A stretch of DNA of 56,497 bases. It comes from Girardia tigrina (taxonomy: Eukaryota). Under the pieces are notes generated by a model. The model was not told the origin of the DNA, did not search any database, and saw only the letters and a list, made by a program, of their open reading frames with translations. Position 1 is the stretch's first letter. Each line of letters starts with the position of its first letter. Positions 1,299 to 53,270 of the stretch are shown here, piece after piece. The DNA lies in contig MQRK01183317.1 in the NCBI GenBank assembly GCA_001938485.1, positions 1 through 56,497 of the forward strand, given 5' to 3'. The position numbers were made by a program, and so were the translations under genes.

Positions 1299-1818
1299 AT
1301 GTTTACGATTTCCTTATCATTTTTTATGATGACTATTGGGAACGTTAATGGTACTTAATGTTTATTTTTTATTTTAACTTGCATCATTTCAGGGGAATAC
1401 GGAGTCAAAGATGGATCTGAATATGTTCCGAGTCATTTGTTCTATTACTTCAATGTATCTACAAAAGAAACATTATCGAAGGAAATTAAAATAAATATTT
1501 CGGTAACAAGGATGACAGGGACATTATTATATATAATTGATAAAGAAGCAAATCAAGTAGTTGTATCTTTGTCTGAAGATGTCGAAGAAAGAATGAAGAT
1601 CGAATACAGAGGAGAAGAAAACTATTATAGTTTGCATGAATTATGTTAGAAAGAGAAAATTGTTTGAATGATTTTGAACGTATTTTTAGGTGGATGTGAT
1701 CGATGCCGATTTAGATCTCTTATTTTTCAATTTATGTTTACTGGGGGTTCTTATATTCGATGCAATAATGGACTCGCAAAACAAATCAGAATGAATAATA
1801 ATAAATTGATAAATAAAG
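1299..1818 (+). CDS. Paralogue A (5' part) of a LamG/EGF neurexin-like surface protein; exons 1299-1350, 1393-1644, 1690-1818
   Basis: Splicing the GT-AG introns 1351-1392 (42 nt) and 1645-1689 (45 nt) gives an open frame MFTISLSFFMMTIGNVNG-EYGVKDG...GTLLYIIDKE...LHELCGCDRCRFR...RCNNG; hydrophobic signal peptide; same intron positions as the paralogue at 28415-27907. Confidence 0.75.
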
Positions 1819-2117
1819 GTTTAAACTCCTGATGCTCATATATCGCTTTATAATATTTTGTTAGGCATAAAATTTATCCAAAGTAGTTCAACATTTTTTC
1901 TAAATTCATATAATTTTGTTGTCATTTTTACTTAGACAATTTGAGACATAAAATAAATGCAATTTTTTTAATTAAGAAGTAAAGAATTTAAATTACCATT
2001 TTAAAATATTAATAATTGTTGGTGTAATTGTATCATTTTCAAACAGGTTTTGAAAAATTCAGTTTACATTATAGTAAAATTTTATTCAAAAATATTAAAA
2101 AAAATATATATTAAATG

Positions 2118-2850
2118 TGTGAGAAGTGGTTGCAACATTAATATCAGAATTCATTTTTTAACACCAAAATTTATTAATATAACAATTCACATATTTAAAC
2201 AAATTTTTCTATTAATTTAATTATCCCCTATTGTTTTCTGAAAAGTTGCATTTAATGTGAATTCTATTTCCGGTAGTAGTTCTCCCAGTCTGATCCTTTC
2301 TTTGTATGTAACGATGCGTTTAAATATTCTCTAATCGTCCGAAATTGTCTTTCTACTATTCCATTCGCGTTTATATTCATTAATTCTGTCATGTCTTTAA
2401 TTACCTTCGATTCGAATGTCTTGCCACAATCTGTATGTATTTCCTTCAGTGCTCCAAATCTCAATATCCATTTTGTCATTATGGTGTCTTTTAGGGTTAT
2501 TTCATTCTGCTTGCTAATGGCTGTCAAAGATATGTACCTACTAAACTGATCTATGATTACAACAATATACTTTTTTCTTCTCCAAGTCTCCTTTAGTGGT
2601 CCGCATATGTCTATGTACACTTTCTTAAATAGTTCATTTGCGACCAGTATCACCCGTTTTTCCTTCATAGTGGTCGTTAATGTTTTACTTTTTTAGCATG
2701 CTTCACATTGTACAATTGCTTCTTTTAATTTTCATCATTTTTAATTTTAAAATATTTAGTAGGCATATTAACATTAAAATATTTTACCTTTTAAATTAAA
2801 ATAATAATAAATTATTCTGGCTAGTTGCAAATTTAAATTAACCCCTCATA
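2118..2850 (-). mobile_element. Internally deleted Gypsy element: LTR-B 5' part + integrase core fragment + LTR-B 3' part
   Basis: Integrase motifs IDICGPL...IIDQFSRY...FGALKEIHTDCG...NGIVERQFRT (2264-2668); ends match the two ends of the solo LTR at 18200-18654; flanks AAATG/AAATA (imperfect TSD). Confidence 0.75.
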
Positions 2851-3569
2851 AAATACTAGAAAACCTTAAAAACAATCAAGTTAAAAAAGAGATTGAAAAA
2901 TTAAAAAATATAAAGTGTAAAATTTTAGTAACGTAAAATGAAAAGTTCTTTAAAATTACTATTAATTCATGAAATTTATGAATAATTCTAAACAAGACTT
3001 TTATTTGAGGTCATATAAAATACTCTGACGACATACGTTTCAAAGGAACAATTCTTCATGTGAGGAATATTTTAATTTTTTTGAAGGTGTAAATGTATAG
3101 ATGCAGTATGTTTATTTAATTATGTTGAATTTAGAATGGTGATTCTCCCACCCAGATGGAAATTCTCCTACTTCTACTATTGTAATATCTCTCGATATTT
3201 TTTTTGTATTTGTGTTGAATGAGCATTTCTTTTCTTTGGTAGTGTTGCGTTGTTTTTTTTTGTTGTCATTATCCGTGTAATGGAGGTTTTTCCGTTTTCT
3301 TAGGGGGGGACTGTTGTGATACCTCACCTTGGTGCAATGAAACATGTTAATGATTTTACACTACTGTATTGTTTTCTCTGTGCTCTTTTTGCTTGTAATC
3401 ATTTTTCTTGGAGTGTTCATGTTCTTTCTTTTGTGTGTTTTGTGTATGTAATGGCTTTTATTGTCGTATAACCTTTGAGTCTCCACTAGAACCACAATGA
3501 TTTTTGTTTTCATCATTTTTGATTTGTTTTTCATCTACGTGATCGCTGAGGTGGAAAGGCAATTAAGAT

Positions 3570-3860
3570 TCATGAAGAAAGTCGTCAAAATGGAAAAATC
3601 AAAGAGTTCAAAGGCCTGAAAGAAAGAAAAGGAAGAATGATCACCATTGTGAACCTTGAAAAGTGTCAATTCATAGTAGAAAAGACAAAATTTTTAGGAT
3701 ATATCATGAGCAAAGAAGGTATAGAGACGGATAAAACGAAAATTGAAGCAATCGAAAAATTTCAAAATCCTTCATACATTAAACATTTAAGAAGTTTCTT
3801 GAGGCTAATGAACTATTATAGAAAATTTTTGAAGGATTATGCAAAATTTAAAAAATTAAT
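3570..3860 (+). mobile_element. Gypsy reverse transcriptase C-terminal fragment
   Basis: NLEKCQF...KFLGYIMSKEGIETD...HLRSFLRLMNYYRKF. Confidence 0.8.
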
Positions 3861-4266
3861 TTATAAAAGATACTTAAATTAACTCATTTATTTTTTAAAT
3901 TTTATTTTATTTATTTTTTAAAATTAATTCTATCGACAAAAATAATTATCTTTATATTTTAAATATCATCGATATACGCATTATTTAGACCTTTTAAAAA
4001 CATAAATAAATTCTAATTTAACCAAAGAATATTATGTTTCCCGAATGTATTTCACACATCTTATATGGCAAGCGCGCACCAGTAACAGAATTGACTCAAA
4101 TAACAATCTTTCAAAAATGAACCCTAGTAAAGGGTTCAATAAAAATCAGTTTCTTGCGTTTCATCATTTAAAATTATATTTCAAATGTCAATTTAAAATT
4201 TTTTAAATCATTACCTTATCTTACTAACACAAATCCAAAATATAATATCAGGCTTTTTCATATATA

Positions 4267-51687: not shown

Positions 51688-51690
<3 letters not shown>

Positions 51691-51721
<31 letters not shown>
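51691..51721. repeat. (AT)n microsatellite
   Basis: Seen directly. Confidence 0.95.
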
Positions 51722-51722
<1 letters not shown>

Positions 51723-52329
51723 TGTTTTAGCATGTAATCAAACACACTTGTCGGTTGACTGCGATGAAACAAAAATAAACATGTCTTGAGGCCCGGGCAA
51801 ATTTTCCGCTGTCAGACGTTCGAATCCGTTCGATTGTCGTGTAAATACATTAATATATAGACTATGATCCATGTAAAATCGAAGATGGAATAATAGTATT
51901 TATTTATTAAGGCATATATAATGTCACCGTAACTGTTTAGGAATTTCGTAAATCGAATATTCCTTCAAATGAATCAAATATGATTTTTTAAATTAAACAT
52001 TTTAGTTAATAAAAAAAAGATTTTCGTGATTGTTAATTTAACCGTATTTTGTGAATACATATTTGATATACAATTTACTTAATTCATCTTTTAATATAAG
52101 AAAATATTTTCTATAATCTTTTGTACTCTACCGATTTAGAAGTTTTGAAATAATTTAATTTCTGCAGTTTTAGTTTAATATTAAATTATAATAATATTAA
52201 TAGAATATATAATGTTTAAATATTGGAAAATATAAAACATAATCATTTAAAGCAAAATAATTACCTCAATTTTGTGTCCGTCTGTAATATAACATTATAT
52301 TGTTTTATTTAAAATAAATATCTCACAAA

Positions 52330-53270
52330 AATTATTTATGCTCTTCTGTGTTGCATGAGCGATTTGTTCATATTCGAATTTATATCCGATTTCTATTAAA
52401 TGAGAATAAAAAATTATTTATTTACGAAATTGTGGAAAATAAAAAATGTATGCATAAATTAAAAATATTTGTTATGTTTTAATTAAATTCATTTTCATTC
52501 AAATAATTTATTCAACACAAAGAGAAAAAATATGACTTAAAAATATTTCCATAAATTCACTAAAAGTTTGAGCAATTATTCGAACCTCTCCACAATTTCT
52601 TTCTCCTGTTTGATTCAGAGTTTCTTTCTACAAAATAATTTTATATTTAGTTTAAAATAAAAAACTTAAAATACAAATTAAAATTATTATTTTAAAAATA
52701 AATAATAAATTACTGTATTCATTTTGTTTTCTCAATAAATGTAAATCGATTTTCGTCCAGTAATATTGTTGAAGATCAGTTTTATAAACGACATCTAAGA
52801 TCAATGATAGATCAATTTTATATATGGATCAACAATATTAACCGATCATTCCATTCCCGTTCAACAGGATCATCGATCTAAAATATATTTCAGACAGATC
52901 GATCAACATCGGAATTTTGGATTCCACCGATAGATTTTTCATTGAGAACTTAATTAAATATATTTCTGTATTTAAAATTTACATAAAAAATTATTTTAAA
53001 AGATAAATTGTTTTGTTTGACCTTCTTTACAACATTTACTTGTAATAAAATAATACCTTTGCTCCAATAGATCGAGAATAAAATGTAATTAATAAAGTTG
53101 CATTTACAAAAATTGAGTATTTTTCTGTAAGGATACCTGAAAGAAGATCTAAAGAATATTAATAATAACAAAGATTTACATGTAACAATTTGTTTCATTC
53201 CTTTTACGTATTGAATCGACAAAATGAGCCGAGATCCTTCAGAAGAAACACTCACATTTGTTGATCTAAA
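52330..53270 (-). CDS. Paralogue C internal exons of the surface-protein family (duplicate of 24520-25595)
   Basis: Exons STNVSVSSEGSRLILSIQYVKGMKQIV, IKFSMKNLSVESKIPMLIDLSEIY and GYKFEYEQIAH are near-identical to paralogue B; introns are more diverged. Confidence 0.65.

Follow-up and report, generated by a model that had tools for sequence, protein, structure and literature searches.

The question raised by this locus is whether the start exons, EGF exon and membrane exons scattered along an AT-rich contig of the flatworm Girardia tigrina belong to one gene family and, if so, what kind of proteins this family encodes. The window analyzed here is the entire contig (G000:C183317; 56,497 nucleotides, G+C content of ~28%) from an assembly of 1.43 Gb in 255,254 contigs. 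The mitochondrial code, taken together with introns of 40–50 nt and this base composition, points to a triclad planarian. Our preferred reading, which the sequence evidence makes reasonably probable, is that a large flatworm family of predicted single-module neurexin-like membrane proteins is represented in the window by three partial copies, its members likely serving as adhesion or recognition molecules diversified as paralogues.

Exon-by-exon modelling identified three partial copies of one spliced gene, designated A (plus strand), B and C (both minus strand). Copy A comprises three exons only (1299–1818): exon 1 (1299–1350), exon 2 (1393–1644), which encodes N-terminal LamG strands as placed by alignment to a LamG profile, and exon 3 (1690–1818), its last exon in the window. 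Copy B comprises 14 exons from 28415 to 13448, which together give 472 codons with no stops and are without the last exon. Its first five exons are also found in RNA-like contigs: exon 1 (28367–28415) encodes the signal peptide, exon 2 (28089–28325) the N-terminal LamG strands with a conserved cysteine at their end, exon 3 (27907–28035) the middle of the LamG domain with family-specific cysteines, exon 4 (26946–27239; 294 nt), identified by profile matches, the LamG end and the EGF domain, and exon 5 (26497–26611) the beginning of a second domain. These are followed by exon 6 (25506–25591), reached by loose ends of RNA-like contigs, exons 7 (25383–25462), 8 (25170–25275) and 9 (25038–25121), exon 10 (24904–24945), which encodes a basic stalk and whose splice sites are absent from two paralogues, exon 11 (24511–24576), also part of the stalk, two putative micro-exons of 17 nt (exon 12, 24448–24464) and 19 nt (exon 13, 20668–20686), and exon 14 (13448–13541), which encodes the membrane helix and a basic cluster and beyond which no last exon was found in the window. 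Copy C retains the 3' half, with exons 6–15 running from 53265 down to the stop codon at 45498. Its exons 6–12 span 52265–53265 (53265–53180, 53136–53057, 52948–52843, 52794–52714, 52627–52586, 52392–52327 and 52281–52265, respectively), followed by a putative 19-nt micro-exon (exon 13, 48370–48388), the membrane-helix exon (exon 14, 46982–47075) and the coding part of exon 15 (45498–45573), which encodes the cytoplasmic tail; a likely 3' untranslated region (44182–45497, minus strand) is retained by paralogues at 77–93%. The exon at 47075 is the membrane exon of this third copy, not of A or B. All joints are of the GT-AG type (13/13 in B, 9/9 in C), and random AG..GT stretches of matched length were mostly closed for the long exons (2/31, 4/25 and 2/39 open).

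Self-comparison of the window aligned copy A with copy B (1389–1822 versus 28329–27903, 69%), and copy B with copy C over the membrane-exon region (13266–13569 versus 46807–47102, 85%) and over the block of internal exons that the first-pass annotation had described as duplicated (24376–25596 versus 52192–53270, 82–88%). That annotation was also correct about the two membrane exons, which share 84.6% DNA identity, about the start codons at 1299 (+) and 28415 (−), about the exact limits of the LamG-end/EGF exon, and about the intron positions and phases shared by A and B, whose first three introns are in phase 1 and whose third exons are both 129 nt long. The signal peptide proposed for both start exons is kept in the model of B and is weak in A (best 19-residue hydropathy 0.88), and exon 2, estimated to be ~55% identical, measured 61% over 79 aligned residues (58% with gaps), with exon 3 at 49%. 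No second exon 4, exon 5 or last exon was found in the window, which contains one of each; A is therefore a 5' fragment and B is without a tail exon here. Since copy A also lies on the strand opposite to both membrane exons, it cannot join either of them, so the link once drawn from N-termini to membrane exons stands for B, supported by its open frame and by a related contig with all exons in order, and fails for A. On our preferred reading, copy A would be a dead 5' fragment, copy B probably has no tail, and copy C looks intact, with its 5' half beyond the contig end. Exons 5–13, the last exon (45573–45498) and the second domain had been overlooked. A decayed, inverted fragment of the exon 1–2 region was also observed at 31560–31642 (+).

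Fuller gene copies were found on related contigs. On C241155 the complete set of 15 exons is collinear on a single strand, with exons 1–5 joined to the same 3' half as in copy C, and yields a model of 495 residues; both splice sites of its exon 10 are gone, and skipping this exon would stay in frame. C254560 contains the same two-gene tandem as the window, with an upper copy that is without a start codon and exon 5, and a lower, B-like copy in which the last exon is present and its acceptor broken. More distantly, the gene on C249112 is 29% identical to the window gene and has the same intron phases for exons 2–9 and equal lengths for exons 3, 6 and 7. Inverted promoter and exon 1–4 pieces adjoin membrane exons at C254560:28193–28434 and C231462:14444–19794, as signs of local rearrangement.

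Splicing across the predicted junctions, which had been proposed as a check, was examined in four of nine listed runs (four studies) aligned to 26310–28600, runs that we took to be RNA by guess and not from their records. The joints between exons 1 and 2 were found in contigs from 3/4 runs, between 2 and 3 in 2/4, between 3 and 4 in 3/4 and between 4 and 5 in 4/4, and loose ends past exon 5 read into the start of exon 6 in all four. Exon depth was hundreds to thousands of times the intron depth in 3/4 runs (X1, X5 and X6, with hundreds to 10,000 on exons versus 0–70 in most intron bins), X7 being thin. A small piece at 26765–26805 (minus strand), previously read as an exon for its ILVLSFKG-like resemblance to neurexin, is intron: in all four runs the contigs pass over it from 26946 directly to 26611, depth there was 0 to 0.24, and its counterpart in C241155 is just 80% alike, as expected of an intron. 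The RNA contigs range over 85–100% likeness, loose ends within the EGF exon indicate several diverged transcripts, and the dominant RNA letter was that of a paralogue, not of copy B, at 12/12 checked places, so that this evidence of expression applies to the family and not to copy B itself. We infer the joints beyond exon 6 from frame, phase and conservation. At the 5' end, the RNA contigs extend to 28495–28598 with 19 bases missing at 28443 and 10 at 28497; the 5' untranslated region thus varies among paralogues.

The predicted protein would consist of one neurexin module with a membrane helix and a PDZ-type tail end, in the order signal peptide (residues 1–17), domain 1 (to ~198), EGF (199–236), domain 2 (~237–385), basic stalk, membrane helix, basic residues and a tail of ~30 residues that closes at the stop with Val-Thr-Val, an end that we take to be of the class II PDZ-binding type. 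The earlier layout of signal peptide, LamG, EGF and membrane helix was right in those parts and missed the second domain and the stalk between EGF and helix. The presence of LamG followed by EGF is a broad feature of the neurexin superfamily, and the kinship suggested at first is borne out by several comparisons. Exon 4 alone matches neurexin-1-alpha with an E-value of 0.005, and a profile of 14 members does so at 2.6e-9, with its best stretch at the last LamG-EGF junction of that protein; Atlas places the exon with an EGF/LamG cluster (0.94). An exon-4 search of 1.84 billion representatives gave 92 matches, of which the two best were unnamed fragments inside the family, followed by axotactin, Caspr and neurexin; among the ten top library matches, the eight that carry names are axotactin, neurexin or Caspr, or else a sponge model, itself unnamed, that has both LamG and EGF. 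When a LamG profile was built from the library matches, both ends of domain 1 aligned in register (scores of 17.4 for B and 7.8 for A, with 3.0 for the best of 200 shuffles), and profile-profile comparison assigned domain 1 to LamG at 92% (68% without exon 4), whereas exon 2 alone gave no relevant match in PDB, Pfam or Atlas. Four cysteines absent from the LamG profile are conserved in the middle of domain 1. An Asp of that profile, a residue with a role in calcium binding, aligns with Asn in the family, so canonical calcium-dependent neuroligin binding appears doubtful. Domain 2 has a LamG-like size and strand pattern and is beta-rich; its scores against the LamG profile (0.1 to <1% in the core clade, 1.3% in the sister clade, at most 0.6% in 20 shuffles) leave its identity as LamG unproven.

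The family had been described as locally amplified, and it is indeed multi-copy, with arrays and broken copies, but it extends genome-wide, well beyond two or three copies. Genome searches accepted 33/49 candidates for exon 2, 36/73 for exon 4 and 7/7 for the membrane exon. Collapsing identical or nearly identical rows among 30 exon-4 rows left ~18 distinct copies in a core clade, 3 of them plainly broken, and the six weakest of the 36 rows were used to open a sister clade whose EGF is degenerate (58/82 candidates, 56 once two core rows were removed). Apart from a fusion of exons 6 and 7, sister genes agree with the core genes in exon order and in phases, and they form arrays of six on C246158, four on C236274 and three each on C172948 and C214224; one sister match on C195276 adjoins a core gene. 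Single exons are repeated on 1–4 contigs, which inflates raw copy counts, and we estimate 50–70 loci in the genome. None of 28 Pfam LamG matches in the genome fell on family contigs; they include neurexin-like and Caspr-like exons. In a tree of 55 rows and 102 columns with 25 library proteins picked from the 92, the core clade, the sister clade and three unnamed library fragments formed one clade apart from the canonical proteins (99/94), a support that could be inflated by long branches and AT-rich composition bias. The three fragments (P0002, P0003 and P0080) come from other data sets; in the tree, P0002 clusters with C249112 and P0080 joins the sister clade, which makes the subfamilies older than this genome. 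A further subfamily with an 8-residue in-frame EGF deletion was observed on C243152, C204339, C160481 and C248776 (L047, L049, L054 and L055).

Membrane attachment itself has to be weighed. A signal peptide, single membrane helix and short tail occur together in the B/C subfamily, with the joints past exon 6 placed as above. The membrane exon was found in five contigs, limited to the B/C subfamily, C183039, whose tail has a different end, and, weakly, C3139; a strict scan of short, gapped contigs detected none in 9/10 other flanks or in sister pairs. Many members could thus be secreted or carry a lipid anchor, or could simply have been cut by the assembly. It is accordingly conceivable, if unlikely, that only one subfamily is membrane-bound and that most of these proteins are secreted or shed components of mucus, glands or matrix, serving structure or adhesion in the extracellular space. 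The missing membrane exon in the sister clade and in three distant core genes would fit this, as would contig depth in the thousands in RNA-like runs and RNA-like cover that extends into intron 5; however, membrane exons occur in two subfamilies 56% apart, the strictness of the scan and the state of the contigs weaken their absence elsewhere, and the covered stretch of intron 5 is a repeat present on other contigs.

Selection was assessed by dN/dS in 16 paralogue pairs, as pairwise averages. Ectodomain values were 0.20–0.49 between subfamilies, 0.50–0.81 in four recent pairs, and 0.94 and 1.17, with wide intervals, in two others; by part, they ranged over 0.24–0.65 in LamG, 0.07–0.58 in EGF and 0.65–1.26 in the stalk. 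No interval lay wholly above 1 in the 16 pairs, and copy B and its probable allele differ in 1/204 ectodomain codons, a pattern expected of paralogues under constraint whose young duplicates are relaxed, and not of hypervariable alleles. The extreme allelic polymorphism and ectodomain dN/dS above 1 characteristic of allorecognition loci of the Alr, fuhc and Tgr type were seen neither in these 16 pairs nor in the one probable allele pair. The allorecognition or antigenic variation first suggested is therefore unsupported, and we regard self/non-self or immune receptors under diversifying selection as improbable. In their favour are the tandem arrays and broken copies, paralogue identities as low as 29%, RNA contigs as little as 85% alike, the stalk values and the two high recent pairs; the constrained LamG and EGF domains and the near-identical probable alleles speak against them. 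Given the low power of pairwise averages to detect single selected sites, we take this reading to be weakened.

Still more improbable is that a few functional genes are accompanied by neutral debris copied with transposons and by haplotype duplicates: all three window copies are partial, near paralogues are without a start codon, exon 5 or splice sites, and identical contig duplicates exist in the assembly, but 55/56 sister matches have no internal stop, haplotypes cannot account for arrays within a single contig, purifying selection acts between subfamilies, and several diverged transcripts align at the EGF exon. A parasite source of the sequences is, by inference, unlikely.

The single-module neurexin-like family can then be compared with known systems. 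Like alpha-neurexin (neurexin-1-alpha; PDB 3r05, 3poy, 3asi), whose last repeat gives the best LamG-EGF junction, it has a type I layout, a short tail and a hydrophobic end of the PDZ-type motif class. It differs in having one module instead of three, the signal peptide exon being spliced directly to the sole module where three LamG-EGF-LamG repeats would be expected; in a LamG below the Pfam cut-off, with the extra cysteines and Asn for Asp; in numbering dozens of genes; and in its separate clade, while canonical neurexin-like exons sit on other contigs. Its 24-residue last exon, searched by itself, gave no Pfam match at E 0.01 for a Syndecan/4.1-type tail; neurexin P0009 itself scores just E 3e-5. 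Axotactin and Caspr/Neurexin IV are the top named matches of the exon-4 profile, but these proteins run to 1200–3000 residues and contain four to six LamG domains, some of them with Kunitz or other domains as well; the discoidin and fibrinogen-like domains and four LamG domains by which Caspr/Neurexin IV is defined in PMC12414531 have no room in the 495-residue model. That paper also defines the neurexin module and describes four superfamily members in C. elegans, including BAM-2, a divergent relative whose LamG and EGF likewise escape domain scans, but which is one gene with no expansion. The planarian PHRED-1, described in bioRxiv 10.1101/131789, also diverges from neurexin as a homologue that combines LamG, EGF and a membrane helix; it has 2536 residues, 6 LamG, 9 EGF and intracellular WD40 domains, whereas the family has ~500 residues and a stop ~30 residues past the helix. 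The family thus belongs to the neurexin superfamily broadly and is not alpha-neurexin, Caspr or PHRED-1. Further literature on the subject is given in PMC6453901, PMC7117911, PMC8533874 and bioRxiv 10.64898/2026.08.23.746249. No description of the family was found in the openly accessible literature searched, and this real, spliced expansion is apparently undescribed.

Under the mechanism that we propose, an ancestor of alpha-neurexin or axotactin type would have given rise to a separate gene with one LamG-EGF-(LamG-like) module; this gene would have retained a membrane helix and short tail and multiplied via tandem duplication among transposons. The ectodomain may bind a partner on neighbouring cells or matrix and the tail may anchor to a PDZ scaffold. 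Variety would stem from many genes under purifying selection, and neither alternative splicing of a single gene nor hypervariable alleles would be its source; birth and death of gene copies is supported. Neurexin-superfamily genes are normally few and varied by splicing, and here one module makes up dozens of genes. Being invisible to Pfam, the family would escape inventories of planarian adhesion molecules and be masked by redundancy in single-gene RNAi screens, and it provides candidates for how regenerating flatworm cells know their partners. Chelicerate short Dscams and vertebrate clustered protocadherins follow the same logic, in which a long neural adhesion protein is shortened and multiplied in tandem arrays, with unrelated folds; in the present family no shared constant exons were seen and each copy is a whole gene. 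By this analogy, at least 50 single-module neurexin genes in tandem arrays, unseen by domain annotation, might form a cell-identity code in planarian-type flatworms, combinatorially expressed on neurons or other cells with like-to-like binding, an extension that we consider rather unlikely. If true, a code for self-avoidance or wiring would have been reached independently for a third time, here by an animal able to rebuild its nervous system.

Other elements were observed in and near the window. An 11-kb insertion between C and B (~32370–43430), not present in C241155 or C254560, contains many intronless ORFs, one of them weakly matching Endonuclease_7; by its motifs it resembles a decayed Polinton/Maverick-type element, with a DDE transposase inserted at 32836–33543. 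An intronless cyclophilin fragment at 5747–6166 on the minus strand (Pro_isomerase, E 2.4e-6) is probably a processed pseudogene, and a 430-nt imperfect inverted repeat (74%) at 19906–20338, next to a TA microsatellite in the intron before the B membrane exon, is likely a MITE. An AT-rich repeat, with copies at 2–505, 5322–5558 and 55271–55760 (90–94%), recurs on further contigs of the family and may have promoted unequal crossing-over. Finally, the genome contains 31 COX1-like matches, of which three examined are frameshifted nuclear copies; these make sense under table 9, a code common to flatworms and echinoderms, with AAA at conserved Asn places and ATA at Ile.
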